In this document: positions 6,664-61,723 of the stretch, piece by piece
Layout of the letters: each line of letters begins with the position of its first letter
Numbering within the stretch: position 1 is the first letter of the stretch
Program-made: the position numbers and the translations under genes
The notes under the pieces: model-generated
Databases searched by the model: none
The model's input: the letters and a program-made list of their open reading frames with translations, nothing else
What the model was told of the DNA's origin: nothing
Assembly (NCBI GenBank): GCA_964527425.1
Contig: CAZGOA010000001.1
Span: forward strand, 20,842-84,841
DNA: 64,000 bases
Reading direction: 5' to 3'
DNA from: an uncultured Gammaproteobacteria bacterium
GTDB lineage: Bacteria > Patescibacteriota > Microgenomatia > UBA10105 > UBA927

Positions 6664-6696
6664 AGATAGCAATTCAAGATAACAATGGTAATTAAA

Positions 6697-22249: not shown

Positions 22250-23274
22250 ATGTTTTTATTTCGTGTACTTTTTTTTAGTTTAATAAATAAATTATCTATT
22301 TCTGATTTAGTGTACCCAAATAACGTTACCCAACAAGCAATTGGATGCATGAACCATGCTATATCTGGTTTTACAATATATCCGCGCAAACTCATTAATA
22401 TATTTGGAATCAGTGTAATTGTACAAAAACAAAAAATCATTAATGAGAGTAAATCGTTAACGTTTTTAAAATCAAAAACAATATAATCTCTTTTTTTTAT
22501 AGACGTATCTATATACTGGTTTCGGTAAATAACTCTTCTCTTTATAAAACGTCTTAAACTTTTCCCGGTAAAATGTACTATGGAATTATTTACTACTCCG
22601 AATTGATTATATTGCTTTATTACTAATCTCATAAACATATCAGTGTGTAAAAATTGTTCTCCTTCAATAATTACCGATTTTAATTCTTTTATGCGAACCA
22701 TATGACCATTATCACCTAATGTTGGAAGATTATTAGGATTAAACATAACTGTCTCATATTTTGAATTTTTTGAAATAATATGACCTTTCTTATAATCGGT
22801 TTCATAATGGGTTAATTTTTCTGACTTACCAAGAAACAACACAAAAGGATCATTAATGCCAAATAATCCACAATACCGAGTCAATAAAGGCATACGTTTA
22901 TCAACATAATTATATTTGCTAAAAGTTCCAACAATATGAGGATTATCAATAAACGGTTGAACCATATATGCAAGCCACGTTTTAGATGTAACAAAATTAT
23001 CAAATTCTAGTATTAATAATAAATCACCATTTACTAATTTAATTCCTTTCGCTGCCCTCATTAACGCAAAATCTTTATATTGTCTTTGAACTATAACTTC
23101 ACACCCAAATGATTTAGCTATTTCAATAGAACCATTTGTAGAACCACCATCCATAACAATATGGCGAATTCTATTTTTAGGATACTCTTGCTGAGCTAAA
23201 TTTATTAAACATTGCTTAACAAGATATATATCAGTGTTGTAAGAGACTGTTAATATTGTTACAAATGGTTTCAT
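22246..23274 (-). CDS. glycosyltransferase family 2
   Basis: 'VTILTVSYNTDIYLVKQCL...IVMDGGSTNGS'. Confidence 0.75.
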   Translation of the reverse strand: MKPFVTILTVSYNTDIYLVKQCLINLAQQEYPKNRIRHIVMDGGSTNGSIEIAKSFGCEVIVQRQYKDFALMRAAKGIKLVNGDLLLILEFDNFVTSKTWLAYMVQPFIDNPHIVGTFSKYNYVDKRMPLLTRYCGLFGINDPFVLFLGKSEKLTHYETDYKKGHIISKNSKYETVMFNPNNLPTLGDNGHMVRIKELKSVIIEGEQFLHTDMFMRLVIKQYNQFGVVNNSIVHFTGKSLRRFIKRRVIYRNQYIDTSIKKRDYIVFDFKNVNDLLSLMIFCFCTITLIPNILMSLRGYIVKPDIAWFMHPIACWVTLFGYTKSEIDNLFIKLKKSTRNKNI

Positions 23275-26200
23275 ATTTTTGATTTTTTTATATCCATATA
23301 TATATAGACAGAAAATACTCCTAAACTTAAGAAGGTTATAAGAAAACCACTAATTACAAATATTTGAGGTAAAAAGTAAAATGTATACTTAGTACTTTCT
23401 GAAGATGCAGGGATTACCCAACCATTACTAAATCCAAACAACTCTATATGTTTTTCGGTAGATTCTTCATTTGAACTAGAAAATAAGGCTAATACATATA
23501 AAAAGACAGAAAAAATATTTTCATTAGTATTTTTTGACTTTACTATTTTCCAACCAGGATGATATGTAGAAGGGATAGAAAGTATACGCGGATATTTTGA
23601 TGAAGGAATGGTAACGGTAAACACTACAGGACTCATTTGAACATATCGTTCTACCTCTTGCGCGGGCTGATTTATTTCATTAATGACCCTCTTAACATAT
23701 ATACTAGGAATATGTTTATGAACAATATTCCTAATAGTGCGTAATTCTATATTATGTAGACCTTCATTGAGCATCAACGGTTTATTATCATTTACCTTAT
23801 TACCGTCGATAAAGATGTCCCAAAAAATCTTATCCGTATCTTTAAAAATAATTTCAAGATTTTCTTCAGTTTCAGGCAGCGTTACAGCATATTTGTAAAT
23901 ATTTCTTTCTGGATCAGAGATAATAACTTTTTTACTAATTTTGTTTAGCATTTCATTAAGGAATGGGTTAATCTCAGTAAATTGATTTTTGTTTGCTTCT
24001 ACATACCGTAATTGTGCTAATAAAAATGCATATATACGAGATCTATATTCCTGTTGTCTTTCTGGAACAAGTTTACTCAAATTGATAATAATATCTTCTA
24101 TAAAGGTTTTGTAAACTGCTATTTTTTGAAATTCATTAGGAATCTTTAGTAGTGCTCTATTAGAGAATGATAAATCCATATCAATTTTTGAACCTGGATC
24201 TATTGTTGGATTGTTGTATAGCTTTGTTTCTTTATGTGAAAGTAATCCCTGACTATTTATTGAAGATGTATTATACGCTGCTATATCGATGCTACTCACA
24301 AAATTTTCAAATTCATTCTCTTTGCAATACAAACAATTAGCTTTCCATATTTGTGTATTAACTTCTTTCAAAACAGATTGAGCTGGCAAAAAAGAATCAT
24401 ACATTACAGCAGCATTACTGGCATTTAATGATAAAAGATGGTTCATTGAATCTTTAGGAGCAAACACCTGCGTTAATGAATTATAAACAAACGGCTTAAC
24501 ATCAGCGTTAATCTCATACAAAGACCATTCTCCTCTCTCTAATACTTTTTTAATCAAAGGAGTTGTATCAAGTAGAGTAGACCATGTACTAATCATTTTT
24601 TGTTTAAACTGTGTATCTTTTATTTCAATATCTTTTCTAAAGAGTATATGAGATATACCCATTAAGTTACTAAGTTGATTTACACTTTTTATTTCTTCAT
24701 TTTTTAAAGAGTTTAGTAATGATTGAATAATTTCTGGAGTTCCTGCAGAATTACCTACTACTGGTTTATCAAATAACAACCATTGAAAAGGTTCCAAACT
24801 ATAATAACCCCATGTGTAAGTATCAGTTGGTACATTAATATACCCTGTATCAATTTCAGGAACAATTAATATTTTTTTGACAGCTTGAGATGATTTTATA
24901 TATTCATCTACCTGATATACATACGTTGGAACGTTAACAAGTGTCGAAAATCCCCAAGTAAACGCAAAAGGATTATTTATAAAAATTGGTATGTGATACA
25001 GAAATATTCCTAAGATTATTACCGCAGAAATTAATAATCGATTTTTTTGGAAAATATTTTTAACATCAGTAAGTATATAGATACTGTATGAAAATAATAT
25101 GCTCATTGAGAAAATTGTTAATGGCATGAATTTGTAATAACTTGAACGAAATATCGCAAAACCAGGAATCTTTCGCATCATTAATTCAAAAATAATTCCT
25201 GTTGGGGGATGTGTTCCTGTAGAAAAAATAATTCCTAAGACAAACAATAATAATAATGTATAAAACCAAAAAGTATAATATTTCCTTTTTCTCTTGAACG
25301 TAATATAAATTAATGCAGCGAAAATTAGTAATATGGGAATTAATCCCATACTATACAAAATAATGTTTGAATAGTTGTTTGAATATGAATATGCATTTTC
25401 ACCAATCCAATTTGGTGAGCCTGTTATTCTGATTACGTTCAGTATGCTTGCATTAACACTTACCATTTTCTCCCAAAGAATAGCACCCTCGATACCTCCC
25501 ACTGCTGATACTGTAGATGAATAACCTGTTGTTAAATATGATAAAAAAGGTAATAACCAATACGCTTGAGATAATATACCTGAGAAGAGTAACCCAATGA
25601 CTATTAATAGAGTTCTTCTTAATCCAGCAATACGAAATAAGGTAATTTCTCTTAATCCGAATACAAAAACCAATAGGAATACTGCGATACCATAAGCTCC
25701 TAATAAAGGAGGTAATCCTGCACTATTAAATAAAAAAAACACAAAAAAATAATATACTAATGATCGAATAATAGTAGACCTTCTAATAAATAGATTATGT
25801 AAAATTAGACACGTTAATGGTAATAAAACAAATAATGAAAACTTAGGCCTATCTGCAATAAACCACAATTCAAACATAAAAAAATTTATTGTATAAAAAA
25901 CTGGACCTATGATTCGTATAATTCTGTAATCAATTGCAGGAAATAACGTTCTCAAGAAGATGTACATAGATATACTCATTAAGAAAAACCATCCTAAGAG
26001 TATAATTCGTTGACCAATATCGATCCCACATATGTACATAACTGTTGTTTCAACAACATTCATAGTAAAAAAGCCACGGGGATACGGCCAATCATTTCCC
26101 GTACTAAAGTTATTATTCCAAGCATAAAAGTGATTTATCACCTGATTTTGAGGTTGTAAGGAAAACGCAGAATCATGACCTAAAACTATACCACCCGACC

Positions 26201-26309
26201 TCATCCACCATAGAGGTAGTAAAGAGAGTAAAAAAAGAAATAATACCTCAGGTATATAATGTTTCCATTGCTTGAGCATAGGACTTCCAAGTAAAGGTTG
26301 ATAGTACAT
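23271..26309 (-). CDS. large (~1010 aa) GT-C-like membrane protein: N-terminal polytopic domain plus ~550-aa extracytoplasmic region plus C-terminal TM anchor
   Basis: Loop motif 'LGHDSAFSLQPQN...WPYPRGFF' after TM1; about 14 TM helices; C-terminal 'YHPGWK' beta-rich region and a terminal TM. The track start 26330 is TTG; ATG at 26309 or 26279 is more likely. Confidence 0.5.
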   Translation of the reverse strand: MYYQPLLGSPMLKQWKHYIPEVLFLFLLSLLPLWWMRSGGIVLGHDSAFSLQPQNQVINHFYAWNNNFSTGNDWPYPRGFFTMNVVETTVMYICGIDIGQRIILLGWFFLMSISMYIFLRTLFPAIDYRIIRIIGPVFYTINFFMFELWFIADRPKFSLFVLLPLTCLILHNLFIRRSTIIRSLVYYFFVFFLFNSAGLPPLLGAYGIAVFLLVFVFGLREITLFRIAGLRRTLLIVIGLLFSGILSQAYWLLPFLSYLTTGYSSTVSAVGGIEGAILWEKMVSVNASILNVIRITGSPNWIGENAYSYSNNYSNIILYSMGLIPILLIFAALIYITFKRKRKYYTFWFYTLLLLFVLGIIFSTGTHPPTGIIFELMMRKIPGFAIFRSSYYKFMPLTIFSMSILFSYSIYILTDVKNIFQKNRLLISAVIILGIFLYHIPIFINNPFAFTWGFSTLVNVPTYVYQVDEYIKSSQAVKKILIVPEIDTGYINVPTDTYTWGYYSLEPFQWLLFDKPVVGNSAGTPEIIQSLLNSLKNEEIKSVNQLSNLMGISHILFRKDIEIKDTQFKQKMISTWSTLLDTTPLIKKVLERGEWSLYEINADVKPFVYNSLTQVFAPKDSMNHLLSLNASNAAVMYDSFLPAQSVLKEVNTQIWKANCLYCKENEFENFVSSIDIAAYNTSSINSQGLLSHKETKLYNNPTIDPGSKIDMDLSFSNRALLKIPNEFQKIAVYKTFIEDIIINLSKLVPERQQEYRSRIYAFLLAQLRYVEANKNQFTEINPFLNEMLNKISKKVIISDPERNIYKYAVTLPETEENLEIIFKDTDKIFWDIFIDGNKVNDNKPLMLNEGLHNIELRTIRNIVHKHIPSIYVKRVINEINQPAQEVERYVQMSPVVFTVTIPSSKYPRILSIPSTYHPGWKIVKSKNTNENIFSVFLYVLALFSSSNEESTEKHIELFGFSNGWVIPASSESTKYTFYFLPQIFVISGFLITFLSLGVFSVYIYMDIKKSKI

Positions 26310-27435
26310 AATCTTTACCTTTATTTGCAATATTCTTTTTTCTATTTTCCGAACGAATATAATAAATTATCGCATTACTTAACTGTTCAATATTTCCTCC
26401 ATCATATAAAAGTGCATCTATTTTATCATGTAAAACTTCTGCTACTCCTGATCCTCGAGATACTATTACTGGCGTTCCCAAAGCCAAAGATTCAAGAACC
26501 GTAAGCCCCCATGTTTGCGGAGAATTAGGAAATACTAACATATCTGCAGCAGATATATATTCCATTCGATCATTATCATTGACGAATCGGTTAATTATGT
26601 ATACTTTATGATTAATTTCCAAAGTATTAATTAACTTTTTGAGTTTATTTGCATATTTTAGATCGGCATTTAAATTAGAAAGTAAAATGAATACAAGATC
26701 ATATGATTTTTTATTTAAAACGCTTAGTGCTGAAAGGATATCTTCGTATCTGCGATGAGGAGAAAGAATATTTGCACCTATAGAAATTATGGAATTGGGA
26801 GAAATACCCAATTCTTTTCGTATATCCTTGGTTGGTATAAATTCTAAATATTTTTTTCTATCTACACCGCTTCGTATGATATGTATTTTTGAGGTATCTT
26901 TCTTAAGCCAAGATGTAACTAGACTGTAATTGCGCTTATCTAATACTGTTATTGCATCAATTGTAGTACCTGCATGTCTATCAATAAATAATTTGAAACG
27001 AGTGAATAAAGACTTACTAAGTCTCGGTGGAACATCATTAATTGTAGTAATTTTTCTTGTTGAAGAACTTTTTATTCCTGATTGAATCCACATCGTCATC
27101 CAATCATGACCGTGTAAAATATCAAATTTATTCCGACGTATTATTATGTGAAATAAAGGAGTATTTAATAAAGCTATGTATAACATTATTGTTTCAATAA
27201 AAAATATATTTATGTTAAACATTCTTATTAATATACTGGGAAAAGGTAATATAGATTTAACCTTAAACTTTTTATAACCTATATCCGCTGTTTCTGGTAT
27301 ATATATACAAGTAAGAATGGTAATAGTATACCCTTCTTCAACCAAAGATTTTGATAATTCTAAACATTGTTTTGCAGTCCCATTCTGCGTAATTAACACA
27401 GGAAGTAGCATACAAACATGCAGTTTTTTTTTCAT
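26248..27435 (-). CDS. glycosyltransferase family 4
   Basis: 'WGLTVLESLALGTPVIVSRGSGVAEVL'. The gene starts 'MKKKL', encoded by an A9 tract. Confidence 0.8.
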   Translation of the reverse strand: MKKKLHVCMLLPVLITQNGTAKQCLELSKSLVEEGYTITILTCIYIPETADIGYKKFKVKSILPFPSILIRMFNINIFFIETIMLYIALLNTPLFHIIIRRNKFDILHGHDWMTMWIQSGIKSSSTRKITTINDVPPRLSKSLFTRFKLFIDRHAGTTIDAITVLDKRNYSLVTSWLKKDTSKIHIIRSGVDRKKYLEFIPTKDIRKELGISPNSIISIGANILSPHRRYEDILSALSVLNKKSYDLVFILLSNLNADLKYANKLKKLINTLEINHKVYIINRFVNDNDRMEYISAADMLVFPNSPQTWGLTVLESLALGTPVIVSRGSGVAEVLHDKIDALLYDGGNIEQLSNAIIYYIRSENRKKNIANKGKDYVLSTFTWKSYAQAMETLYT

Positions 27436-28353
27436 TTATAAAGTTATGTTAAGGAGTTTTAAAATTATTGCCTTTTGTATGTGAAGTCTATTTTCAGCTT
27501 CATCCCAAACAATGGATTGTGGCCCATCAATAATTTCATCGGTAATTTCATCATTTCTATGTGCTGGTAAACAATGCATAACAACGACATTCTTTTTTGC
27601 ATATTGCAATAGTTTTTTGTTTACTTGATAAGGTCTTAACGCTTTTTCTCGCTCCTCTTTGTCTGTTTTTCCCATACTTACCCATACATCTGTAACTACT
27701 ACATCTGCATTTTTTACAGCTACAGAAGGGTCTGTTATCATATCAAATGTTCCGTTATATTTTTTAGATAATACTTCTATTTCTTTAACTATTTCTTTAT
27801 TCATTTCATACATTTTAGGAGATGAAACACGACAGTGCATACCTAATTGCATAGCTAGTATAGCTAAACTATTTGTCATATTATTATCTCCGTCTCCTAC
27901 ATATGTTAATGTAAATTTAGATAATTCTTTCTGTCTTTCCCATAAAGTAAACATATCTGCTAATACTTGACATGGATGAAATTCATCACTTAGTCCGTTA
28001 ATAACTGGCTTACCTGAATATTTAGATATCGTAACCACATCATCGTGAGAAAAAACTCTTGCCATAATAATATCGACATATCTGCCTAATACTCTGGCTG
28101 TATCAGCAATTGTTTCCCCTCTAGAAAGTTGTAGATCATTTGCACCTAAATACAACGCATGTCCACCCAATTCTGTCATCCCGACTTCAAAACTAACTCG
28201 TGTTCTTGTTGATGGTTTTTGGAAAATCATTGCCATTGATTTTCCTTTCAAATATGAATAATATCTTTTTTGCTTTATTTTTTTAGCAGTTTTAAACAAT
28301 TCATAAATTTCTTTTAGTGAGAAATCAGTAGTGGTTAATAGAGATAGAGGCAT
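27436..28353 (-). CDS. argF: ornithine carbamoyltransferase
   Basis: 'STRTRVSFE' carbamoyl-P site, 'DVWVSMG', 'HCLPAHR' ornithine-binding motif; 305 aa. Confidence 0.85.
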   Translation of the reverse strand: MPLSLLTTTDFSLKEIYELFKTAKKIKQKRYYSYLKGKSMAMIFQKPSTRTRVSFEVGMTELGGHALYLGANDLQLSRGETIADTARVLGRYVDIIMARVFSHDDVVTISKYSGKPVINGLSDEFHPCQVLADMFTLWERQKELSKFTLTYVGDGDNNMTNSLAILAMQLGMHCRVSSPKMYEMNKEIVKEIEVLSKKYNGTFDMITDPSVAVKNADVVVTDVWVSMGKTDKEEREKALRPYQVNKKLLQYAKKNVVVMHCLPAHRNDEITDEIIDGPQSIVWDEAENRLHIQKAIILKLLNITL

Positions 28354-28414
28354 AATAGACGGTTTTCTATTTATTTAATTGCTCTTCTTTAATTTTAGAA
28401 GTATTATTGCACTT

Positions 28415-29425
28415 ATGCAGAAGTTAGTCTACCCTAAAGTTACGTTCATAATACCCACATTAAATGCATCTTTTTACTTGCCAAAATGTTTAGATGCTAT
28501 TCGATCTCAAAAGTATCCACAAAAAAAAATCGAAATTATTATTGCAGATGGTGGATCTTGTGACAATACAATAAAAATTGCAAAAAAATATAACACAAAG
28601 ATTATTTCTAATCCTGAGGTTCTCCATGAGCAAGGCAAATCTAGAGCTTCAAAGGTTGCAACTGGAGGCATTTTATTCTATACCGATGCTGATAATATTC
28701 TATCTACTCAACACTGGATAGAAATGATGATTAAACCTTATATTAAAGAAAAAAATGTTGTCGGGTTCCTACCTCAAACGATTCCAGCTCCTGACTCAAA
28801 CCCGCTTGATAAATATTTAGGTTATTTGTTTACTGATCCTTTCACATGGTTTGTTTATGGGCTTAGCGCTAACCCTCAAACATATCACCTAAAATACAAA
28901 CCAATTAAAATAACAAAAGATTACGAATTATATAAATTTAAAGGACTTGATTATCCTTTATTTGGACTTTCACAAGGCGTGGGTACTGTAAAAGATTTTA
29001 AACGCTCACAACATGCATATGCCGATGATTTACTGGCTGGTATAAAACTCATGAGAGATGGTGGTGTTATCGCATATATACCTCAAGCGGGAGTTTATCA
29101 CTATCATGTGTCAGGCTTTTCGAACTATATAAATAAATACAGATGGCGAGTAAGAAATAATCTTACTAAAAAAATTAAGGGTATGGGCATTTCCAACCGA
29201 ACTATTTATTTCAGTACAATGAGAAAAGTAAAAATGTTTTTATTCATTCCCTATGCACTTTCAATAGTATTCCCTATTATTGATTCAATTACACTCTCTA
29301 TTAAATATAAAGATAAAGTTATGCTGTACCACCTCCCTGCTACTTTAGTCCTTGCTTATCTAGTCATAGCAGAATATTTTCAATATTTATTCAAAACTAA
29401 TAATAATTTAGGAACATATGAATAA
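28415..29425 (+). CDS. glycosyltransferase family 2
   Basis: 'VTFIIPTLNASFYLPKCLDAI...IIIADGGSCDNT', 'YTDADNIL'. Likely ATG start at 28415. Confidence 0.75.
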   Translation: MQKLVYPKVTFIIPTLNASFYLPKCLDAIRSQKYPQKKIEIIIADGGSCDNTIKIAKKYNTKIISNPEVLHEQGKSRASKVATGGILFYTDADNILSTQHWIEMMIKPYIKEKNVVGFLPQTIPAPDSNPLDKYLGYLFTDPFTWFVYGLSANPQTYHLKYKPIKITKDYELYKFKGLDYPLFGLSQGVGTVKDFKRSQHAYADDLLAGIKLMRDGGVIAYIPQAGVYHYHVSGFSNYINKYRWRVRNNLTKKIKGMGISNRTIYFSTMRKVKMFLFIPYALSIVFPIIDSITLSIKYKDKVMLYHLPATLVLAYLVIAEYFQYLFKTNNNLGTYE

Positions 29426-30572
29426 ATACTCTTCAATTATATATGTTAATTTTGCACCGTATGAAAATGCGGGACATATACTTGATTATTTATTAGATAC
29501 ATATGAGATAGTAATACTCTTTTGCTTTAATTTTCATAAATTAACTAATAAAGAAGAACCAAGTTTGTTAAAAATTTATAAACTAAAAAAACTAACTTAT
29601 ACTCATAAACTTTACTATATACCTACTCCTCAAGCATTAGTTTTTGTACTTCTTCCTTTACGATCGGCAATAATTTTTTTGCAATTACTATGGCATATAC
29701 TAAGACTTCATATATCTATAGGTAAAATAGATACCTATTTTACTGTAAACGCTTTTACTGCTTGGTGTGGAATTATTTTTAAACGTTTACATTTTGTTAA
29801 CAGAACAATTTTCTGGGTATGGGATTATTACCCTCCAATTCATACGAATAAGATTGTCATGTTTATGAGATGGTTATATTGGTTGTATGATAAACCTGCC
29901 ACATTGCATTCAGACAAAATCGTTTTTTTGAATAAAAACTTAATAGAACTTAGAAAAAGACATAATATTCTAAAAAAAGATACAAAGTATTCTATTGTAG
30001 AAATCGGAACTAATCCTGTAAAAACAATCTCAATAAAGAAAAAATCATCAGTTAATCTTGTTTTTTTAGGTGTAATCAAGAAAAGTCAGGGATTAGATTT
30101 GTTATACGATGCTGCATCTGAAATCAAAGAAAATTTTCCATCTATTACTATTACAGTAATTGGATCTGGACCTGAAGAATCGCATTTTAAAAAAAGAGCC
30201 AAAAATACAAAATTAAAAACGAAATTTCTTGGATTTGTAGCAGATGATCAATTAGTAGATCTCACTATTAAACAAGCACACATTGGGTTGGCTTCTTATA
30301 TTCCAGAAAAGAGCAATGTTTCTTATTATAGTGACCCATCTAAGATAAAACGATATATTAGTTCAGGTATTCCTGTAATTACTACAGATGTTTTCGACTT
30401 TTCAAAAAAAATTAAGAAATTTAAAGCGGGTATATTAATTGAATATGATAAAAAAGAATTAGCTAGAGCTATAACTACAATATTAAAATCCTATTCTTTT
30501 TATCAAAAGAATGCATTAAATCTATCAGAGCAATATAAATATTCTACCATATACAAAAGAATTTTTAATTAA
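29418..30572 (+). CDS. GT-B glycosyltransferase (GT4-like), paralog of 33922..35097
   Basis: C-terminal 'KFLGFVADDQLVDLTIKQAHIGLASY...SGIPVITTD'. The N-domain architecture matches gene 33922..35097. Confidence 0.65.
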   Translation: MNKYSSIIYVNFAPYENAGHILDYLLDTYEIVILFCFNFHKLTNKEEPSLLKIYKLKKLTYTHKLYYIPTPQALVFVLLPLRSAIIFLQLLWHILRLHISIGKIDTYFTVNAFTAWCGIIFKRLHFVNRTIFWVWDYYPPIHTNKIVMFMRWLYWLYDKPATLHSDKIVFLNKNLIELRKRHNILKKDTKYSIVEIGTNPVKTISIKKKSSVNLVFLGVIKKSQGLDLLYDAASEIKENFPSITITVIGSGPEESHFKKRAKNTKLKTKFLGFVADDQLVDLTIKQAHIGLASYIPEKSNVSYYSDPSKIKRYISSGIPVITTDVFDFSKKIKKFKAGILIEYDKKELARAITTILKSYSFYQKNALNLSEQYKYSTIYKRIFN

Positions 30573-31680
30573 GCTTCTGTTTTTGTATTGCAATCATTCC
30601 TGAGAGTAATTTTATTACTTTGGTTGAAATATTTAATTCTTGATAATGAATAGACGGATTCAACTGATTGGCTAAATGCTGTGTCGAGAGTGTTGTCGAT
30701 ATTGCTTGCATTACATCTCCTGCTTCTAGCCCACAGACTATGATTGAACCAGCATCAAATGCTTCAGGTCGCTCCGTTGATGTTCGAAGCTGAATAGCAT
30801 TACATTTAAGTATCGATGATTCTTCTTGAATTGTGCCAGAATCAGATAATACACATAAGGCATTTTTTTGAAGCTTAATATAATCAAAAAACCCAAATGG
30901 TTTATGAAATATAATATTCTTATTATTCATTATGAATCCTTGTAAACGCATTTTAGTGCGTGGATGTAGTGAAACAATTATAGGTTTTTTATATTCATCT
31001 ACAACAGCTTGTAACGTGTTAATCAACTTCCTTAAAGGTTTTGGATCATCAACATTTTCTTCTCTATGAACACTTACTAAAAAATATGAATTAGGATTTA
31101 ATGACAGTTTTTTAAGAATATTTGATTTTTCAATAGATTCTGCATAGTAATCAATTACTTCTTTTAGAGGAGAACCAAACACAAAGATAGAGTCAGGGTC
31201 TATACCTTCTTCAAGTAAATATCTTCGTGCATGTTCGGTATAACATATATTAAAGTTGCTGATATGATCTACTATTCTCCTATTAATTTCTTCAGGAACA
31301 CGCCAATCAAAGCATCTATTACCTGCTTCCATATGAAATATTGGTATATTCATACGTCTTGCTATGATTGCTGAGAGAGAACTATTAGTATCTCCCAAAA
31401 TTAAAATTGCATCTGGATTAATTCTACTAATAATATCTTCCGTTTGTGATAAAATATTACCAATTAATCTACTAAGGATATTAGATTTTACATCCAAAAT
31501 ATGATCAGGCGCCCGCAAATTAAGCTCATCAAAGAAAATCCCACTTAATTCAAAATCATAATTTTGGTTAGTATAAACAAATACATGCTTAAATACTACA
31601 TCAAGAGCAGGAAGTATCCGTGATAAGCGAATAATTTCAGGTCTAGTCCCTAAAATAGACATTACTGTATATTTATGCAT
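30565..31680 (-). CDS. UDP-N-acetylglucosamine 2-epimerase family (CapG/FnlC/WecB-like)
   Basis: 'MSILGTRPEIIRL', 'HMEAGNRCFDWRVPEEINRRIVDHIS'. Confidence 0.8.
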   Translation of the reverse strand: MHKYTVMSILGTRPEIIRLSRILPALDVVFKHVFVYTNQNYDFELSGIFFDELNLRAPDHILDVKSNILSRLIGNILSQTEDIISRINPDAILILGDTNSSLSAIIARRMNIPIFHMEAGNRCFDWRVPEEINRRIVDHISNFNICYTEHARRYLLEEGIDPDSIFVFGSPLKEVIDYYAESIEKSNILKKLSLNPNSYFLVSVHREENVDDPKPLRKLINTLQAVVDEYKKPIIVSLHPRTKMRLQGFIMNNKNIIFHKPFGFFDYIKLQKNALCVLSDSGTIQEESSILKCNAIQLRTSTERPEAFDAGSIIVCGLEAGDVMQAISTTLSTQHLANQLNPSIHYQELNISTKVIKLLSGMIAIQKQKLN

Positions 31681-31684
31681 ATTT

Positions 31685-32722
31685 TTATTTTAATTCCTCT
31701 TTAATCTCAGGAAGTGATAAAAGTAAAGAAATAGTCTGTTCTTCACTTAACTGTTGAGTATTTCCAGATGTATAAGCTTGTAGATTATCTTTATATGTTG
31801 ATTTTCCTTCACTAAAATAGGTTTGATAATTAAAATGCTTTCCTTCTGGAGCTATTTTATAATAATCACCAACATCAAATGCCCTTAAAAATTCTTCACT
31901 GGTTATTAAAGTTTCATGTATTTTTTCTCCCGATCTAATTCCTACATATTGAATACCTTTTTTATAAGAAAAAATTTTATTAATACTTTGTGCTAGGGTT
32001 TCTATAGTACATGCCGGAGATTTTTTTACGTACATAAATCCATTTTCTCCTTTTGAAAGAGCGTAAAGTACTAAGCCAACAGCATTTGGCAATGGCAATA
32101 AAAATCGAGTCATCGTAGGGTCTGTTATTGAAAGTTTTTCTCCTTTTTTAATTTGTTCTACGAAAAAAGGAATTACTGACCCTCGTGAATATAATACATT
32201 TCCATAACGCACACCGCAAATAGTTGTAGTATGTTTTTTTTCATCTAATTCTCTAGCCTTTGCTACCATAACTTTTTCCATAAGTGCCTTAGACATTCCC
32301 ATTGCATTGATAGGATAAACAGCTTTGTCAGTACTCAATACAACTACTCGTTTTACCTTGTGTGATATAGCACTTCTTAAAATATTTTCTGCTCCAATGA
32401 TATTTGTTTGTACTGCTTCAAGAGGGAAAAACTCACATGAAGGTACCTGTTTAAGAGCAGCTGCATGAAACACATAATCTACTTTCTCCATGGCAGATTC
32501 AATACTTTGATAATTTCTAACATCTCCTATAATGAATTGCAATAATGGTGATTGAAACTCATTTCTCATATCAAATTGTTTCTTTTCATCTCTGCTGAAA
32601 ATTACTATTTTTTTTGGATTTTTAGGTAACAATTGTTTAATTACTGCATGACCAAAAGATCCTGTACCTCCTGAAATAAAAAACACTTTATTTTTTATAT
32701 ATTTATTAAATAATTCATTCAT
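31685..32722 (-). CDS. UDP-GlcNAc 4,6-dehydratase (CapE/FnlA/WbjB/PseB-like polysaccharide biosynthesis protein)
   Basis: 'ISGGTGSFGHAVIKQLL', 'VFHAAALKQVP'. Confidence 0.75.
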   Translation of the reverse strand: MNELFNKYIKNKVFFISGGTGSFGHAVIKQLLPKNPKKIVIFSRDEKKQFDMRNEFQSPLLQFIIGDVRNYQSIESAMEKVDYVFHAAALKQVPSCEFFPLEAVQTNIIGAENILRSAISHKVKRVVVLSTDKAVYPINAMGMSKALMEKVMVAKARELDEKKHTTTICGVRYGNVLYSRGSVIPFFVEQIKKGEKLSITDPTMTRFLLPLPNAVGLVLYALSKGENGFMYVKKSPACTIETLAQSINKIFSYKKGIQYVGIRSGEKIHETLITSEEFLRAFDVGDYYKIAPEGKHFNYQTYFSEGKSTYKDNLQAYTSGNTQQLSEEQTISLLLSLPEIKEELK

Positions 32723-32724
32723 AA

Positions 32725-33111
32725 TTATATTGTGTAAGTATCAGAGTCATTAGGATTATACTCTTCACTAATGTAAACTAATAATATTAATTCTTCTACT
32801 CCAATATTTTCTATTTGATGAAATATGCCCATAGGCATCTCTACTATGGTTGGGTTATCAGCACTTAATTCAATTATTTCACTGTCTTTAGTATTCAAAT
32901 TCTTCAATGTTAATAATCCTTTTCCCTTAATAACACAATACCATTCACGCTTTCGATTATGATAATGCCCTCCTTTTTTCATTCCAGGTTTAGCTGTTGT
33001 TATTAGAATCTGTCCAAATGTTGATTTACCTACATGTTCAGCTCTTAATAGTTCATACAACATTCCACGTTCATCTCTTTTTACTTGTAATTTTCTAATA
33101 GATACTTTCAT
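32725..33111 (-). CDS. cupin-fold sugar epimerase/isomerase (CapF C-domain-like or FdtA-like)
   Basis: 128 aa, 'KKGGHYHNRKREWYCVIKGKG' His-containing cupin motif. Overlaps the upstream SDR gene by 17 nt. Confidence 0.6.
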   Translation of the reverse strand: MKVSIRKLQVKRDERGMLYELLRAEHVGKSTFGQILITTAKPGMKKGGHYHNRKREWYCVIKGKGLLTLKNLNTKDSEIIELSADNPTIVEMPMGIFHQIENIGVEELILLVYISEEYNPNDSDTYTI

Positions 33112-33910
33112 AATCTTTATTCAAAATTTCTTGAATACCTTCCAGAATATTCGTCCTAGGAAACCAACCATCATTTGTTTGTATAGTATCTGGAACGATT
33201 TTTGGTAATTCTTTTGGTTCAGGATTATTCGTTTTAAGTATTTTAATTTTTCTTCCCGTAATATTTCGAATAACGGTAATTATATCGTTAAGAGATAGTT
33301 GTGTACCAGAACAAATATTATAAGTACTACTATATATAGTAGTCTTTTTAGACTGAATAATTAATAAAAAAGCGTTTACTACATCTTCAATATATATATA
33401 ATCTCTTTTTTGCTCACCATCATTATTTAAATTTATTGATTGATTATGTAATATTTGATAAAGGTATGTAGAAATAACAGAATTATAGAAAGGCTTACAA
33501 CCAGGACCATATACATTACTTAACCTCAAAATTGTAGATTTAATCTTGTTTCTTTTTGCATATAATGCAAGTAATTCTTCACAGGTTTTTTTTGATAAAC
33601 CATATATAGAATTTTCATAGAATATTTGAAATGAAGAAGAGAACAGAATGTGTGCTTTTGGATTAAAATTATTTACAACATCCAGTAATGAAAGAGTAAG
33701 ATTAATATTTGTGTTAAAAATATCTATATCAGATCCACGATTTTTTCCTCCTAGATGAATAATAATATCTGCATTAGTTACTTCTTTTGTGAAATTTTTA
33801 TTTATCTTTTTTGGGATTCTACAGACATTAAACGCTATATTATATTTGTTTAGTTTTTTAACAAGATGCCTTCCTATAAAACCTGTATGTCCAGTAACTA
33901 ATATTTGCAT
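33095..33910 (-). CDS. short SDR NAD(P)-dependent reductase (CapF N-domain-like)
   Basis: 'MQILVTGHTGFIGRHLVKKL', 'YGLSKK'; 271 aa. Confidence 0.7.
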   Translation of the reverse strand: MQILVTGHTGFIGRHLVKKLNKYNIAFNVCRIPKKINKNFTKEVTNADIIIHLGGKNRGSDIDIFNTNINLTLSLLDVVNNFNPKAHILFSSSFQIFYENSIYGLSKKTCEELLALYAKRNKIKSTILRLSNVYGPGCKPFYNSVISTYLYQILHNQSINLNNDGEQKRDYIYIEDVVNAFLLIIQSKKTTIYSSTYNICSGTQLSLNDIITVIRNITGRKIKILKTNNPEPKELPKIVPDTIQTNDGWFPRTNILEGIQEILNKDYESIY

Positions 33911-33921
33911 ATACGATTATA

Positions 33922-35097
33922 TTAACTTAATATTCTATTCAAATTCTTTTTAAAAATGATATTCCAATCATACTCTTTAGCATAAGAACGGGCATTTTCA
34001 CGATATTCATTATATCGTTTTGATGATGACAATAGGATCGATACAGCATTTATAAAGGACTCAATCGTATAGTTTATTACAACTCCCGCCCTTTTTTTAG
34101 TAATATCTTTATTTGTAGATATTGCATCTGTTACAATTACAGGCATCCCGTATTGTGTATATTCTTTTATTTTAATAGGATCAGCATTTTGTACTTTTTC
34201 ATCTAGAATAAGAGTATTAAATGTAGCCAGACCTATCGCTCCATCTCTTAGTAAATGTTCTCTCTCCACTTCTGTCTTAATCCATCCATGAAAAGTTACA
34301 ATTTCTTTTATTTTCAATTTATCAACGAGTTTTTTTAAATAAAGTTCCGCTTCTCCTCCGCCTATTATTTCTAAATGAATATTAGGAAATTTTTTACGAA
34401 GTTTTGTTAATGATCGAATCGGCAAATCTACTCCCATAAAATCAACTAAATGACCAATAAAAACTAACTTATTAATATCAATCAAATGTTTTGGTACTTT
34501 TTTTGCTTTATTAAACCATATACCTATTGGTACATGATACTGTCTTCTAAATGCATCACTTTTCATTCCATTTTTTTCTCTTGCTTTTTTCATAGCACTT
34601 GAAACATTCCATGTTTCATCACATAAAAATACGCAAATTTTATCTAATAAATGATATATAAAATTCATTATTTTATTACTAAACCTTTCTGGAAAATAAT
34701 CTATTGAATAATAAATATTTTTTTTGGTAAACCCGAACAATTTTAATAGAATACCTGCCAACGCATTTAAAGGATCCAATCCTATATATAGATCAAATTT
34801 TTTATTACTACTAATAACCCAATACAAAGAATATAAAACATCTTTAATATACAAAAAAGATTCCGGTAATCGTATATGAGGAGCAGTAGATGACTTTATA
34901 GAAACACTATCCAGATATAACTCCTTTCTAGAAGATTGGCTATAGCACTCGTTTATATACAATAAAGGATGTGCAATAAATAATACTGTTCCTGTATAGT
35001 TGGTGAGACAGAAATCTCGCAAATTATGACCTGGCCCACTGGGTGTAATTGACTCATGAACAACTATTGCAATATTAAAATTATTAGAAAAATTCAT
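33922..35097 (-). CDS. GT-B glycosyltransferase (GT4-like), paralog of 29418..30572
   Basis: C-terminal 'LEIIGGGEAELYLKK...IGLATFN' and shared N-domain pattern. Confidence 0.65.
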   Translation of the reverse strand: MNFSNNFNIAIVVHESITPSGPGHNLRDFCLTNYTGTVLFIAHPLLYINECYSQSSRKELYLDSVSIKSSTAPHIRLPESFLYIKDVLYSLYWVISSNKKFDLYIGLDPLNALAGILLKLFGFTKKNIYYSIDYFPERFSNKIMNFIYHLLDKICVFLCDETWNVSSAMKKAREKNGMKSDAFRRQYHVPIGIWFNKAKKVPKHLIDINKLVFIGHLVDFMGVDLPIRSLTKLRKKFPNIHLEIIGGGEAELYLKKLVDKLKIKEIVTFHGWIKTEVEREHLLRDGAIGLATFNTLILDEKVQNADPIKIKEYTQYGMPVIVTDAISTNKDITKKRAGVVINYTIESFINAVSILLSSSKRYNEYRENARSYAKEYDWNIIFKKNLNRILS

Positions 35098-36878
35098 TTA
35101 ATGTTTCTTTTTGATAGAAGATAATTGCCTAATGCTAGATACTCTAAGCCTGAATGTTCAAATGCATGTATCGCTTCTCTTGGTCCTAGTACTATTGGAA
35201 AACCATGGAGATTAAAGGATGTGTTTAAAACACCACCTATTCCGGTCAATCGTTTAAATTCACTTATTATTTTGTGGTACGAAGGATTCCATTCGGAGTC
35301 AACTAGTTGAGGCCTTATTGTAAAATCATATGGATGCATAGCAGCTCTAAGTTCTTGTTTCGCTTTTTCTGTAGAGTTAAACGTAACTATCATATATGGC
35401 GCAGAAATATTTTTAGGATTAACTATATAATCATTTGCATATTCTTTAAGAATTGAAGGTGTAAAAGGCATCCAAAAATCTCTCAGTTTCATTTGTTCGT
35501 TAATAATACGCACATTATCAGGATTAGAAGGATTAGCAAGAATAGACCGGTTACCTAATGCTCTAGCACCCCATTCCATTTTATTATTCATTCTAGCTAC
35601 TACTTTATTGCTTTGCAACAATTTCGCTATTACTGATTCTATTTCTTTATGATGTTTTACAACAAATTTTTTTTGAATATTGTATTTCTTTATATATGAA
35701 TAAATATCTTTATCACTAAATTCCGGTCCTAAATATAATTCTTTTAATTGTTGAGGATTAATTTTGATACCATATTTTCTGCATTCATCAATATATCCTA
35801 AATACGCTGCACCTAATGCTGTTGATTCATCTCCGGCACTAGGACAAGGAAAAAATTCTTTTACTCCTGCAAGCTCTGCAACTCGCATATTAGCTTTTAC
35901 ATTCATGACTACACCCCCGGCCATACAGATTGTATGAATACCTGTATGCTTAACTGCAGCAGAAACCCATTCAACAATTCTTTCTTCAATGAGTTTTTGA
36001 AATGCACCTGCAATATTGTCAAATCGTAATTCTTTCATTTCATTTTGAAGGAAAAAACCAGAAAGATGTGTATCAAATAATTCTTTAAAAACTAATGGAT
36101 TATTCGGATCAAGGGTAACAATATTTTTTATTTTTTCATATATAGGTAATACACCATAATCTTTAGCATACGGCGCTAAACCCATTACTTTATATTCGTG
36201 TTCATTACGCTTCATTCCAAGATAACCGGTAACTTCCATGTAAAGATATCCCAGAGAACAAGAAGAAGGAGTAGATGCCAATCTTGTCCATTCTCCATCT
36301 TTTACGACATTTACTGTAGCTGATAAAAGATCTCCTTCTCCATCAATAGTTAGAACTAAAGCATTCTTCTTATTGTAGGGACTTCCATAATATGCTGCTG
36401 CCGCATGAGCCATGTGGTGTTCATATTGATGAATTTTTCTCTCAGAAATTGTAAGATATTCAGCAATAACTCGCTTCATCTTATCCGAAGTTCTTTTTCC
36501 AAACACCCTGAAAGCTAATGAGTATAACGGCCATGTAATGGTATGAAGTATTGGAAATTTATATTCCAGGAAACCAATATAATATCGCAATTTCAATAAA
36601 GGGCTATATAAATTACTAACAATATTTAAAATAGAATCATTTTTAATTTTTTTGTCTTGATAAACTGGTACACCCCATAATCTTGGGATTGCTACATGAT
36701 CTATATCGCTACCACTGATTGATTCATTTTCTAATAGCCAATCAATACTTTTATATGGAAATCCAATATAGTTTTTTATACCATTAAATCTCTCTTCACT
36801 AACAGATCCGACAACCACACCATCTTTTATAAGAGTAGCTGTTGCATTGTGACCATCATAAATACCCAATATATACAT
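35094..36878 (-). CDS. carbamoyltransferase, NodU/CmcH family
   Basis: 'MYILGIYDGHNATATLIKDGVVVGSVSEERFNGIKN' (Carbam_trans_N); 594 aa. Confidence 0.8.
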   Translation of the reverse strand: MYILGIYDGHNATATLIKDGVVVGSVSEERFNGIKNYIGFPYKSIDWLLENESISGSDIDHVAIPRLWGVPVYQDKKIKNDSILNIVSNLYSPLLKLRYYIGFLEYKFPILHTITWPLYSLAFRVFGKRTSDKMKRVIAEYLTISERKIHQYEHHMAHAAAAYYGSPYNKKNALVLTIDGEGDLLSATVNVVKDGEWTRLASTPSSCSLGYLYMEVTGYLGMKRNEHEYKVMGLAPYAKDYGVLPIYEKIKNIVTLDPNNPLVFKELFDTHLSGFFLQNEMKELRFDNIAGAFQKLIEERIVEWVSAAVKHTGIHTICMAGGVVMNVKANMRVAELAGVKEFFPCPSAGDESTALGAAYLGYIDECRKYGIKINPQQLKELYLGPEFSDKDIYSYIKKYNIQKKFVVKHHKEIESVIAKLLQSNKVVARMNNKMEWGARALGNRSILANPSNPDNVRIINEQMKLRDFWMPFTPSILKEYANDYIVNPKNISAPYMIVTFNSTEKAKQELRAAMHPYDFTIRPQLVDSEWNPSYHKIISEFKRLTGIGGVLNTSFNLHGFPIVLGPREAIHAFEHSGLEYLALGNYLLSKRNIK

Positions 36879-36883
36879 ATCGA

Positions 36884-37459
36884 TTAATCTACATACTTTA
36901 CTACTTTAGCTGGATTTCCCGCAACGACTGAATAAGCTGGAACATCATGAGTTACAACACTGCCTGCACCTATTATTGCACCCTTTCCTATAGTAACTCC
37001 TTTCATTATCATAGCTCTTCTCCCAATCCAAACATCATCTTGAATTATTATAGGTTTTGATTCAGGAGGTACTCGTTTATATTTACTTGATTCTAATCCG
37101 TATATTGAAAATGACTTAATATCTTTCCTTCGATCTTTACTATGTAGTGAATGACTATTGTTATCCTGAATATAAACATCAGCAGAAACCATAACATACT
37201 TCCCTATTTTTATAGAATTCATCGCTCTAATTACACTTCCACGGGCAATATTAGTAAATTCATCAATTTCTATTTTTCCATTTAATTCAACTATTAACCA
37301 TCCAAAAATACATGCATTTTTTTTAATAATTATTTGATCTTTATTTTTAATTCCTAATATACCTGAACCAATGAAAAAAAATACAGGTTTATTTAACGTA
37401 ATAAGATTGTTATAGAATATTGTATATAACCAAGAAATAAGTTTTTGAATAAATGTCAT
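36884..37459 (-). CDS. hexapeptide-repeat acetyltransferase
   Basis: '[34 protein letters not shown]'. Confidence 0.7.
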
Positions 37460-38433
37460 GATTTATAAGTATTAATATACCAATCTATTGTTTTTCTTAG
37501 TCCTGTATCAAACTTAGTTTTTGCTTTAAATTCTAATACTCTTTTCGCTTTACTGTTATCACTATTCCGTCTAGGACTACCATCAGGTTTTGTTTTATCA
37601 AATAAAATTTTGGGGTTTTTTCCAGTATATCTTACTATTTTATTGATTAATTCCTTAATTGAAATTTCTTCATCTGTTCCAATATTCACAGGATCAGATT
37701 TAGGATATTTTTCTATAGCTTTTAACATACCAGATGCCAAATCTTCCACATACAAAAACGCTCTTGTTTGATTTCCACTACCCCAAACTACCACTGGATT
37801 CTCGTCACTTAATACTCTTTTTATAAGCGCTGGAATAACATGAGAAGAATATGAGTCAAAATGATCTCGAGGACCGTACGCATTATACGGTCTAATAATA
37901 CTAATATTCATTCCAAACTCCTCAGCATAATACACACCTAATTTTTCTGCCATTCGTTTTCCCCAACCATATCCACCGTTTGTTGGTTCAGGTTCACTTC
38001 TAAATCCTTCTTCTTCTGGGGTAGGGATAATCGCATCACGGGGATAAACACAAGCTGAAGACACTACTAAAAAACGATTAACTTTTTCTACTCTAGCTGC
38101 CTCAAGCATTGTCATTCCTATATTAAGATTATCTCTTAACATTGTTGCTTGATGCATTCTATTATATTCTATTCCTCCTACATGAGCTGCTAAATTCATA
38201 ACAATATTTTTCCCCTGACAAGCTCGCTTAGCAGTATTTAAATCTGTACAATCACCATTTATAAAATTTATTTGATCTTTTAAATAACCAATGTTCTTTA
38301 TAGTATTGTTCTTTATTCTATCCAGAACAGTTACTTTAGCATTTTTTTTAATTAATAGTTCAACTACATGACTGCCTATAAATCCTGTCCCTCCAGTTAC
38401 TAATACTTTCTGATTGTTCCAAAAATTTATCAT
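37456..38433 (-). CDS. GDP-L-fucose synthase-like (GDP-4-keto-6-deoxy-D-mannose 3,5-epimerase/4-reductase; Fcl/ColC-like)
   Basis: '[13 protein letters not shown]', 'VSSACVYP', '[12 protein letters not shown]', 'HVIPALIKR' parallel Fcl motifs. Confidence 0.7.
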
Positions 38434-53417: not shown

Positions 53418-53420
53418 AAT

Positions 53421-54938: not shown

Positions 54939-54939
54939 A

Positions 54940-57013: not shown

Positions 57014-57019
57014 ATCGTT

Positions 57020-58645: not shown

Positions 58646-58648
58646 ATA

Positions 58649-61662: not shown

Positions 61663-61680
61663 AGGTGTATTGTACTAAAA

Positions 61681-61709
61681 TTGAACAGCATACATGAAAG
61701 AGATACTAT
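61681..61709 (+). promoter_or_regulatory. candidate sigma70-like promoter for the + strand gene at 61724
   Basis: TTGAAC (61681-61686), a 17-nt spacer, TACTAT (61704-61709); AGGA about 9 nt before the ATG. Lies in a 61-bp divergent intergenic region. Confidence 0.3.
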
Positions 61710-61723
61710 AGAATAGGATTCTC

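Follow-up and report, generated by a model that had tools for sequence, protein, structure and literature searches.

A possible carbamoyl relay between an ornithine carbamoyltransferase and a class III carbamoyltransferase in a glycan locus of a probable patescibacterium

An ornithine carbamoyltransferase (OTC) gene placed within a run of glycosyltransferase genes raises the question of what this enzyme does there. The window analysed here, a 64 kb stretch of DNA out of a 249 kb contig, lies within a locus for glycan biosynthesis that exceeds 64 kb. The locus belongs to a low-GC bacterium, probably one of the Microgenomates group of Patescibacteria (CPR). The window also encodes a class III carbamoyltransferase (CTase) of the TobZ/NodU/CmcH/NovN type. 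The most likely explanation, to which we give a probability of roughly 0.45, is that the OTC supplies the CTase with carbamoyl phosphate from citrulline, forming a two-enzyme carbamoyl relay. The underlying chemistry is known, and the relay is a plausible but unproven variation on it. If it is wrong, the OTC would be an ordinary arginine-pathway gene, oddly placed.

Two carbamoyltransferases among glycan genes

The window has 55 ORFs that reach 100 aa, and 53 of them were scanned with Pfam; the other two run antisense within annotated genes. The matches were only to glycosyltransferases and GT-C-like membrane proteins, to enzymes of sugar conversion (epimerases, dehydratases and aminotransferases), to acetyl- and methyltransferases, to a flippase-type transporter and to a NUDIX protein, and about 10 ORFs had no Pfam match. 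No arginine, carAB, arcA or arcC gene was found among the 53 ORFs scanned in the 64 kb window, in agreement with a previous reading of the sequence alone, which had placed the OTC among glycosyltransferases and not arginine genes. The genes around the two carbamoyltransferases are as follows.

22246..23274 (-): GT2 glycosyltransferase (Pfam Glycos_transf_2), in the same leftward operon as the OTC
23271..26330 (-): polytopic membrane protein (about 1012-1019 aa) with weak resemblance to GT-C/AftD, farther down the OTC operon
26248..27435 (-): GT4 glycosyltransferase (Pfam Glycos_transf_1, Glyco_transf_4)
27436..28353 (-): OTC (Pfam, TIGR00658, motifs), heading the leftward glycosyltransferase operon
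28379..30572 (+): a GT2 gene followed by a GT4 gene (Pfam), both read rightward, between the OTC unit and the CTase unit
30565-31680 (-): WecB/FnlC-like 2-epimerase (NCBIfam wecB, 243.4 bits, above the cutoff of 210)
31685-32722 (-): FnlA/PseB-like 4,6-dehydratase (FnlA model, 416.9, below the cutoff of 730)
32725-33111 (-): FnlB/WbcJ-like reductase, cupin ORF, matching one half of WbcJ
33095-33910 (-): FnlB/WbcJ-like reductase, reductase ORF, matching the other half of WbcJ
33922..35097 (-): GT4 glycosyltransferase (Pfam Glycos_transf_1), sharing 4 bases with the CTase gene at its stop codon
35094..36878 (-): CTase (Pfam Carbam_trans_N/Carbam_trans_C, solved-structure matches, aligned motifs)
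36884-37459 (-): hexapeptide-repeat acetyltransferase (Pfam Hexapep; NCBIfam WbbJ-like, below cutoff)
37456-38433 (-): SDR epimerase/reductase (Pfam Epimerase; NCBIfam GDP-fucose-synthase-like, below cutoff)

The OTC gene encodes a canonical short-type enzyme of 305 aa. Its two-domain fold is complete, with near full-length matches to both the carbamoyl-phosphate domain (Pfam OTCace_N, 1.2e-50) and the ornithine domain (OTCace, 1.1e-55), and it passes the cutoffs of the NCBIfam argF equivalog TIGR00658 orni_carb_tr (412.5 bits, cutoff 280.85) and of NF001986 (416 bits, cutoff 306). The carbamoyl-phosphate motifs STRTR (S48-R52) and HPCQ (H126-Q129) and the ornithine motifs DVWVSMG (D222-G228) and HCLP (H260-P263) are intact in the translation, and all four are invariant across 20 clade members. 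The OTC assignment previously made from the STRTR and HCLP motifs is thus confirmed. The top solved-structure match is the Pyrococcus furiosus enzyme (1A1S/1PVV, 350 bits), and the protein shares about 57% of its residues with a characterised OTC. As the enzyme is canonical, citrulline and ornithine are its expected substrate pair.

The OTC family also includes enzymes acting on other amines, with dedicated NCBIfam models for YgeW and for the carbamoyltransferases of putrescine and N-acetylornithine, and the presence of DegT-type aminotransferases, and so of amino sugars, could point the same way. The substrate might be a non-canonical amine, for instance an amino sugar or a glycan or lipid that carries ornithine, or else ornithine, and not carbamoyl phosphate, might be the product of use to the envelope. 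However, the protein stays under the cutoffs of the putrescine (313.9, cutoff 500), N-acetylornithine (187.5, cutoff 288) and YgeW (51.7, cutoff 500) models, as well as that of the aspartate model (160.8, cutoff 237). Together with the equivalog match, the invariant motifs, the identity to a characterised OTC and a window lacking any amide ligase or Mur-type gene, this makes either alternative very improbable.

The CTase (594 aa) has a Kae1-like Carbam_trans_N domain (9.7e-43, residues 3-358) and a YrdC-like Carbam_trans_C domain (1.5e-56, residues 418-590), the latter spanning profile positions 1-170 of 170. It matches the solved structures 7XB6, NovN (9S2T), TobZ (3VEN) and GdmN, and the motifs GH(N/D)A with its His, HHxAH, GxRALGNRS, KxR and NTSFN can be aligned to solved structures, with GH10N, H154-H158 (HHMAH), K464-L-R466 and NTSFN falling opposite their counterparts in 7XB6, NovN and TobZ. 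Going by TobZ and Sua5, these residues presumably serve as the catalytic His near the N-terminus, the HxxxH metal motif, and the KxR and SxN motifs of the YrdC-like domain. On the NodU model NF041651 the protein reaches 91.7 bits where 1000 are required, which makes it a member of the family but no ortholog of NodU. The nearest named homologs among the best 120 matches come from Levybacteria (64%) and Amesbacteria (62%). Class III CTases require carbamoyl phosphate and ATP, and act via carbamoyl-AMP (PMC9633730). Given the architecture and motifs shared with TobZ-type enzymes, the expected chemistry runs from carbamoyl phosphate and ATP through carbamoyl-AMP to an O-carbamoyl product, and we propose that the CTase consumes both substrates as a putative glycan O-carbamoylase.

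The stop codon of the OTC abuts the start codon of the GT4 gene (TAA ATG), so that the two genes are probably co-transcribed. The same junction is found in L001-L004 and in the relative L085. The membrane protein further downstream scores 21.8 bits against Pfam GT-C_AftD, under the cutoff, has 10 TM-like segments and is kept in L085. GC3 of the OTC (0.186) is the same as that of its neighbours, indicating native composition. On the other side, gene calls on identical contigs start the divergent GT2 (336 aa) at an ATG near 28415, which, going by the calls in L001 and L085, is probably the true start and would make the intergenic gap to the OTC 61 bp, not 25 bp.

Directly upstream of the CTase, and in the same unit, are the acetyltransferase and SDR genes (36884..38433). 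The cassette at 30565..33910 resembles FnlA/FnlB/FnlC (UDP-L-FucNAc) genes and is predicted to synthesise a 6-deoxy-N-acetylhexosamine nucleotide sugar; the N- and C-terminal halves of WbcJ are here two separate ORFs (scores of 110 and 72, cutoff 500). The window also encodes DegT-type aminotransferases, evidence that the glycan genes produce amino sugars.

OTC-CTase pairing in other lineages

The sequence-only reading had put a NodU/CmcH-type CTase about 7 kb from the OTC, in the next leftward unit. The distance is 6.7 kb, and the two genes belong to different leftward transcription units since two plus-strand genes (28379-30572) lie between them. The same layout, including the CTase, is kept in L085, in which the OTC is 79% and the CTase 80% identical to those of the window. 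A second lineage is represented by L087 and L088, where an OTC 61% identical to the window's is found 200 bp from a CTase (66 bp in L088) and has a Bac_transf gene on its other side; the glycan cluster around them differs from the window's. The CTase in L087/L088 is only 29% identical to the window's, and represents a different subfamily.

At 160 background OTC loci (1.9 Mb; 91 loci of at least 10 kb) no NodU-type CTase was present. Pairing in 2/6 lineages against 0/160 gives p ~0.001 by Fisher's exact test, and random placement in a genome of 0.6-1.2 Mb gives P ~0.004-0.015 for at least two of six lineages within 10 kb, with only five or six OTC lineages sampled. When contigs were matched by length across three match lists (best 120 each), no additional OTC-CTase pair occurred on one contig. 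No OTC lies within 10 kb of the orthologous CTases in glycan loci of one Levybacteria genome (L177) and one Amesbacteria genome (L178-L180). P0003 and P0004, the OTCs that follow in similarity (66% and 64% identical), adjoin genes for mevalonate-diphosphate decarboxylase, a NUDIX protein and PAP2; these contigs are only 2.9 kb long, so a CTase could still be near.

Catabolic or anabolic use of the OTC

Close relatives of the OTC (L090 and L174-L176) adjoin carbamate kinase (arcC), and in two of these lineages an ArcE-like (arginine-synthetase-like) gene lies between arcC and the OTC. In a neighbour-joining tree the CTase-linked OTCs form one subclade with moderate bootstrap support (126/200), and their sister groups are arcC-linked. 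These neighbours point to a catabolic, carbamoyl-phosphate-producing use of the OTC in this group. The sequence itself groups with short enzymes known as anabolic (Pyrococcus, Bacillus), apart from the annotated catabolic structures 1ORT, 2W37 and 4AMU.

This grouping, together with the argF equivalog match, would suit an anabolic ArgF making citrulline for arginine, with carbamoyl phosphate coming from carAB or reversed carbamate kinase and the location being incidental. We consider this improbable, as the 64 kb window holds no other arginine gene and the relatives pair with arcC and ArcE-like genes, not argG/argH. CPR/Patescibacteria genomes are usually without amino-acid biosynthesis, which also counts against it.

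The arcC and ArcE-like neighbours would also be seen if the OTC were a housekeeping catabolic ArcB, with the remaining genes of its pathway (arginine deiminase or arginine synthetase) elsewhere, carbamoyl phosphate going mainly to carbamate kinase for ATP, and the glycan-locus position reflecting loose CPR gene order and no dedicated link to the CTase. OTC neighbours vary in nearly every lineage examined (mevalonate-diphosphate decarboxylase, DUF7897, a ribosomal-protein operon), CTase orthologs occur elsewhere with no OTC nearby, and Saccharibacteria are known to have an arginine deiminase system (PMC8764695). However, the embedding in the glycan locus is kept at 79% identity with the GT4 gene translationally abutting, the second lineage has its OTC immediately beside a CTase of another subfamily against a low chance expectation, and searches of L085, L087 and the 64 kb window found neither an arcC nor an ArcE-like match. 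On balance we find a housekeeping role somewhat unlikely as the full account. It is compatible with the relay, because the CTase could draw on the same carbamoyl-phosphate pool.

From citrulline to a carbamoylated glycan

In the proposed relay the OTC would run in the phosphorolytic (ArcB) direction, converting citrulline and Pi to ornithine and carbamoyl phosphate. The YrdC-like domain of the CTase would then form carbamoyl-AMP from carbamoyl phosphate and ATP, which could pull the unfavourable OTC equilibrium forward, and the Kae1-like domain would move the carbamoyl group to a sugar hydroxyl of the glycan made by the neighbouring genes. The acceptor may be the 6-deoxy-HexNAc of the FnlA/B/C-like cassette, or an adjacent residue. 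Citrulline could be taken up directly, or be made from scavenged arginine by an arginine deiminase or an arginine synthetase whose gene lies elsewhere. That a catabolic OTC feeds the CTase had been suggested from the sequence alone, and the suggestion holds in part. The L085 layout, the L087 pairing, the 0/160 background, the arcC-linked relatives and a precedent in Thermococcus kodakarensis are in its favour; CTase orthologs in two other CPR genomes with no OTC nearby and the separate transcription units are against it.

T. kodakarensis has no carbamoyl phosphate synthetase. Genetic work has established its ArcB/OTC as the source of carbamoyl phosphate (PMC13260591, 2026), within an arginine synthetase pathway consisting of ArcE-ArcB-ArcC (PMC13260591, PMC11032458). 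The product serves pyrimidine synthesis and hydrogenase maturation, the latter dependent on the carbamoyltransferase HypF (PMC13260591), which works via a carbamoyl-AMP intermediate (PMC9633730), as the window's CTase would. The window's OTC is of the same short type, with a Thermococcales enzyme as its top solved-structure match. It is proposed to make carbamoyl phosphate from citrulline in an organism presumed to be without the synthetase, and has close CPR relatives in arcC/ArcE-like/OTC cassettes. In contrast to the archaeal system, the window's proposed consumer is a glycan O-carbamoyltransferase and not the pyrimidine or hydrogenase route, and its OTC is embedded in a glycan locus with no arcE or arcC within 64 kb. 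The arginine deiminase system of Saccharibacteria (CPR) similarly combines a catabolic OTC, a reduced genome and scavenged arginine (PMC8764695), but is an arcABC(D) module for energy and acid tolerance, whereas the window lacks arcA, arcC and arcD and has its OTC beside glycosyltransferases. The window's CTase is only about 25-30% identical to TobZ, NodU, CmcH, NovN and GdmN despite the common Kae1-like and YrdC-like architecture, and it lies among surface-glycan genes instead of in a cluster for an antibiotic or a Nod factor. The characterised enzymes draw on the carbamoyl phosphate synthetase of their host and are not known to have an OTC linked to them.

More broadly, and as a tentative extension, OTC may have been recruited into surface-glycan loci of Patescibacteria without carbamoyl phosphate synthetase as a dedicated generator of carbamoyl donor, such that host-derived arginine or citrulline ends up in an O-carbamoylated cell-surface glycan via class III CTases. 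Both CTase subfamilies (the window's and the L087 type) are widespread in Patescibacteria, and citrulline-fed glycan carbamoylation would therefore be a common CPR surface feature. If so, amino-acid scavenging would be tied to cell-surface decoration in ultra-small, host-dependent bacteria, and the origin of carbamoyl phosphate for the numerous TobZ/NodU-type CTases of many Patescibacteria would be explained. The idea of OTC as a carbamoyl-phosphate source, recently shown for pyrimidine and hydrogenase metabolism in archaea, would also widen to the modification of glycans in bacteria.

In Pseudomonas, the putative carbamoyltransferase WapO (PA5005) O-carbamoylates heptose II of the LPS core (PMC8005017). 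By function and context WapO would resemble the window's CTase, being a sugar O-carbamoylating enzyme encoded within a surface-glycan cluster. Pseudomonas has carAB, and its WapO cluster is not known to contain an OTC. The description of a carbamoylated surface glycan as unusual was overstated, since such glycans are already known in Pseudomonas and the CTase subfamilies are so widely distributed in Patescibacteria. On the glycan of the window, the relay predicts a carbamoyl modification of +43 Da (+43.006 Da).

Two carbamoyltransferases and their glycan locus

Two genes of the window are central to this analysis:

27436-28353, minus strand: ornithine carbamoyltransferase (OTC), 305 aa
35094-36878, minus strand: class III (TobZ/NodU/CmcH-type) carbamoyltransferase (CTase), 594 aa

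The reading we favour, with a confidence of about 0.45, is that citrulline serves the OTC as the source of carbamoyl phosphate, which the CTase would use for O-carbamoylation of a sugar in the glycan made by the locus. Neither enzyme is unusual for its family, and both families are well known. The OTC has both OTCase domains (Pfam; OTCace_N, 1.2e-50; OTCace, 1.1e-55) and scores 412.5 bits against the NCBIfam ornithine carbamoyltransferase equivalog TIGR00658 (cutoff 280.85), while staying under the cutoffs of the putrescine, N-acetylornithine, aspartate and YgeW models. Its translation holds STRTR and HPCQ for carbamoyl phosphate binding and DVWVSMG and HCLP for ornithine binding; none of these motifs varies among 20 OTC clade members. 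The identity, coordinates and motifs in the sequence-only reading were correct. Given the motifs and the sister-family scores, a non-ornithine substrate is unlikely, and a non-canonical substrate or ornithine-supply role is highly improbable, less likely than the general catabolic role weighed below.

Among solved structures the top match of the OTC is that of Pyrococcus furiosus (1A1S/1PVV, 350 bits), and the catabolic-annotated structures 1ORT, 2W37 and 4AMU score about 190-210 bits. Of the 55 ORFs that reach 100 aa, 53 were searched against Pfam, the other two being antisense ORFs nested in annotated genes; no arginine, carAB, arcA or arcC gene turned up in the 64 kb window, bearing out the claim that the OTC lies among glycosyltransferases rather than arginine genes. 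We regard a role as anabolic ArgF as improbable, and as less likely than the general catabolic one. Recent horizontal insertion was rejected on composition, since the OTC has a GC3 (0.186) like that of its neighbours (0.14-0.235). A tRNA scan found no tRNA genes in the window, and hence no taxonomic or integration marker.

The window, of about 31% GC and with dense, same-strand genes, is one very large glycan locus encoding GT2 and GT4 glycosyltransferases, a flippase-type transporter, sugar epimerases, dehydratases, aminotransferases, two hexapeptide acetyltransferases and one methyltransferase. The OTC stop directly abuts the ATG of a GT4 gene (TAA ATG), so the OTC is the first gene of a leftward operon that continues with the GT4, a membrane protein of about 1012-1019 aa, a GT2 and further genes. 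The CTase unit consists, in order, of an epimerase, a hexapeptide acetyltransferase, the CTase, a GT4 and then a FnlB-like (split), FnlA-like and WecB/FnlC-like cassette, which suggests a putative 6-deoxy-HexNAc sugar, with matches below equivalog level. Two plus-strand glycosyltransferase genes separate the units; the spacing of about 7 kb and the place of the CTase in the next leftward unit were rightly described. The OTC and CTase are not co-transcribed, which counts against the favoured reading. Promoter and terminator counts in the window were at or below shuffled expectation and did not inform operon boundaries.

The FnlB/WbcJ-like reductase (32725-33910, minus strand) is encoded by two overlapping ORFs, an SDR (33095-33910) and a cupin (32725-33111), that match the two halves, N- and C-terminal, of a single NCBIfam model. 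L001, a contig with an identical OTC, and L085, the locus of a relative, have it split in the same way, so it looks like a real two-gene arrangement rather than a sequencing error.

The CTase family and recurrence of the pairing

The CTase has Carbam_trans_N and Carbam_trans_C domains (Pfam) and can be aligned to the carbamoyltransferase 7XB6, NovN, TobZ and GdmN. Structure alignments show conservation of the N-terminal catalytic His, the HHxAH metal motif, GxRALGNRS, KxR and NTSFN. It is a member of this family and not a NodU ortholog (91.7 bits vs a cutoff of 1000). Named homologs come from Levybacteria (64%), Amesbacteria (62%), Microgenomates and Daviesbacteria. Taken with the base composition and gene layout of the window and with the affiliation of many OTC relatives (below), they suggest that the DNA comes from a Microgenomates-group member of the Patescibacteria (CPR).

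The pairing recurs in relatives. L085, whose OTC is 79% identical to that of the window, keeps the entire arrangement, with a CTase 80% identical, and contigs with an identical OTC from four sequencing runs (Logan contigs of up to 11 kb) have the same neighbours. A second lineage, L087 (strain variant L088), has an OTC 61% identical that also passes the OTC equivalog cutoff. It lies between a Bac_transf phosphoglycosyltransferase and a CTase, 200 bp from the latter in L087 and 66 bp in L088, in a cluster with an epimerase, a Wzm/Wzt-type ABC transporter, a radical SAM enzyme and a GT2. This CTase is 29% identical to that of the window, and its homologs are also from Patescibacteria, as are many OTC relatives at 54-60% identity (Parcubacteria or Patescibacteria).

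The background comprised 160 listed OTC loci, drawn from a variety of genomes and metagenomes (1.9 Mb in total; 91 loci of at least 10 kb). These included at least 80 diverse loci from a reference-genome scan, 44-52% identical, and a metagenome scan with the OTC clade alignment, in which the matches listed were mostly distant OTCs used as background only. A NodU-type CTase was found in none of the 160, with a search sensitive enough to detect the 29%-identical CTase pair at 1e-56. Linkage in 2/6 lineages vs 0/160 gives p of about 0.001 (Fisher's exact test), and the chance of at least 2/6 lineages falling within 10 kb is about 0.004-0.015 under random placement in a 0.6-1.2 Mb genome. Among the top 120 matches of three lists, the pairs sharing a contig were just the three known (contigs of 248987, 192223 and 61373 bp), with no further ones. 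The glycan loci of orthologous CTases in one Levybacteria genome (L177) and one Amesbacteria genome (L178-L180) had no OTC within 10 kb. Both observations count against the favoured reading.

The two CTase subfamilies (35094-36878 of the window and L087:11122-12828; mutual identity 29%) each have thousands of homologs. Named matches in the best 120 of both are nearly all Patescibacteria (Levy-, Ames-, Davies-, Gottesman-, Woese- and Uhrbacteria), with one Omnitrophota, and the homologs lie in glycan loci wherever checked. Glycan carbamoylation may be common in Patescibacteriota (CPR), and the abundance of CTase homologs raises the question of the source of carbamoyl phosphate in these organisms.

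Proposed carbamoyl phosphate supply and the relatives of the OTC

Citrulline phosphorolysis catalysed by OTC is thermodynamically unfavourable. What lets it proceed in the arginine deiminase and arginine synthetase pathways is the removal of carbamoyl phosphate. Class III carbamoyltransferases convert carbamoyl phosphate and ATP to carbamoyl-AMP in the YrdC-like domain, and the Kae1-like domain carries out carbamoyl transfer (PMC9633730); this ATP-driven adenylation would exert the same pull on the OTC equilibrium. Thermococcus kodakarensis is without carbamoyl phosphate synthetase, and deletion of its arcB (OTC) abolishes both carbamoyl-phosphate-dependent pyrimidine synthesis and hydrogenase-dependent growth, which needs maturation by the carbamoyltransferase HypF; deletion of arcC has little effect (PMC13260591). 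It is this chemistry, pull and precedent that lead us to favour supply of the CTase by the OTC.

Some relatives have a catabolic context. A carbamate kinase gene precedes the P0007 OTC (L090), and those of P0010 and P0012 are in a cassette of arcC, a 439-aa protein and OTC between the ribosomal protein genes S10 and L3. The kinases of P0007 and P0012 (L174) score above the arcC equivalog cutoff.

Carbamate kinase/439-aa ArcE-like/OTC cassettes in CPR-like relatives (S10-L3 insertion)
L174:7732-10936
L175:7717-10936
L176:2603-5822

In L175 and L176 the kinase is present as two ORFs (180 aa and 107 aa), which may be a frameshift or pseudogene. The 439-aa protein recurs beside OTC in at least 18 loci, including a Thermococci genome, and has weak matches to cyclic 2,3-diphosphoglycerate synthetase and to cobW/GTPase. 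ArcE is itself weakly similar to that synthetase, has some homologs annotated as putative GTPase, and is often encoded near arcB and arcC (PMC11032458); from these likenesses the 439-aa protein looks like an arginine synthetase of the ArcE type.

The arcC-linked close relatives give a catabolic context for OTCs near that of the window, and the main rival, that the OTC is the cell's general catabolic ArcB and its position incidental, is compatible with the favoured model. We consider it rather unlikely. The neighbour-joining tree groups the OTCs of the window, P0002, P0003/P0004 and P0011 in one subclade (126/200 bootstraps), with the arcC-linked OTCs outside it. After P0002, the closest are P0003 and P0004 (66% and 64%; L181:649-2554 and L182:123-2719), directly downstream of a mevalonate-diphosphate decarboxylase gene (4-base overlap in L182), and beside NUDIX and PAP2 genes (in L182 the PAP2 phosphatase follows the OTC). 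Since both contigs measure just 2.9 kb, a CTase could still lie close by. The genes around these two OTCs have to do with isoprenoid or lipid-carrier metabolism rather than with arginine. The P0013 and P0022 OTCs adjoin a DUF7897/CiaB-like gene, whose 563-574-aa product ends 14-25 bp upstream of OTC (L089:8295-10918, L172:8251-10918); this lineage also has genes for an M20-family peptidase and MFS transporters close by. The gene contexts of P0003, P0004, P0013 and P0022 weigh against the favoured reading.

Supply of a CTase by OTC joins elements already known separately: a carbamoylated surface glycan in the Pseudomonas LPS core, via the putative enzyme WapO/PA5005 (PMC8005017), a catabolic OTC in CPR, in the Saccharibacteria arginine deiminase system (PMC8764695), and OTC as the cell's carbamoyl phosphate source in Thermococcus (PMC13260591). 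The literature searched yielded no earlier description of an OTC placed inside glycan loci with a class III carbamoyltransferase and repeatedly linked to them, of an OTC-CTase pairing or of CPR glycan carbamoylation.

Polytopic membrane proteins of the locus

At least 15 ORFs of the locus encode polytopic membrane proteins with 6-20 TM-like segments each; most of them match Pfam weakly (PMT_2, YfhO, Wzy_C, AftD) or not at all. Several form paralog sets.

Polytopic membrane proteins and paralog sets of the window
5155-9675, 18430-26330, 38449-41864, 44443-45783 and 50653-63397: polytopic membrane proteins (TM-like segments)
38449-40161 and 40158-41864: paralog set, 47% identical
50653-52272, 54940-56589 and 61724-63397: paralog set
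57020-58645 and 58649-60343: paralog set

The density of GT-C-like genes is unusually high for a single locus.
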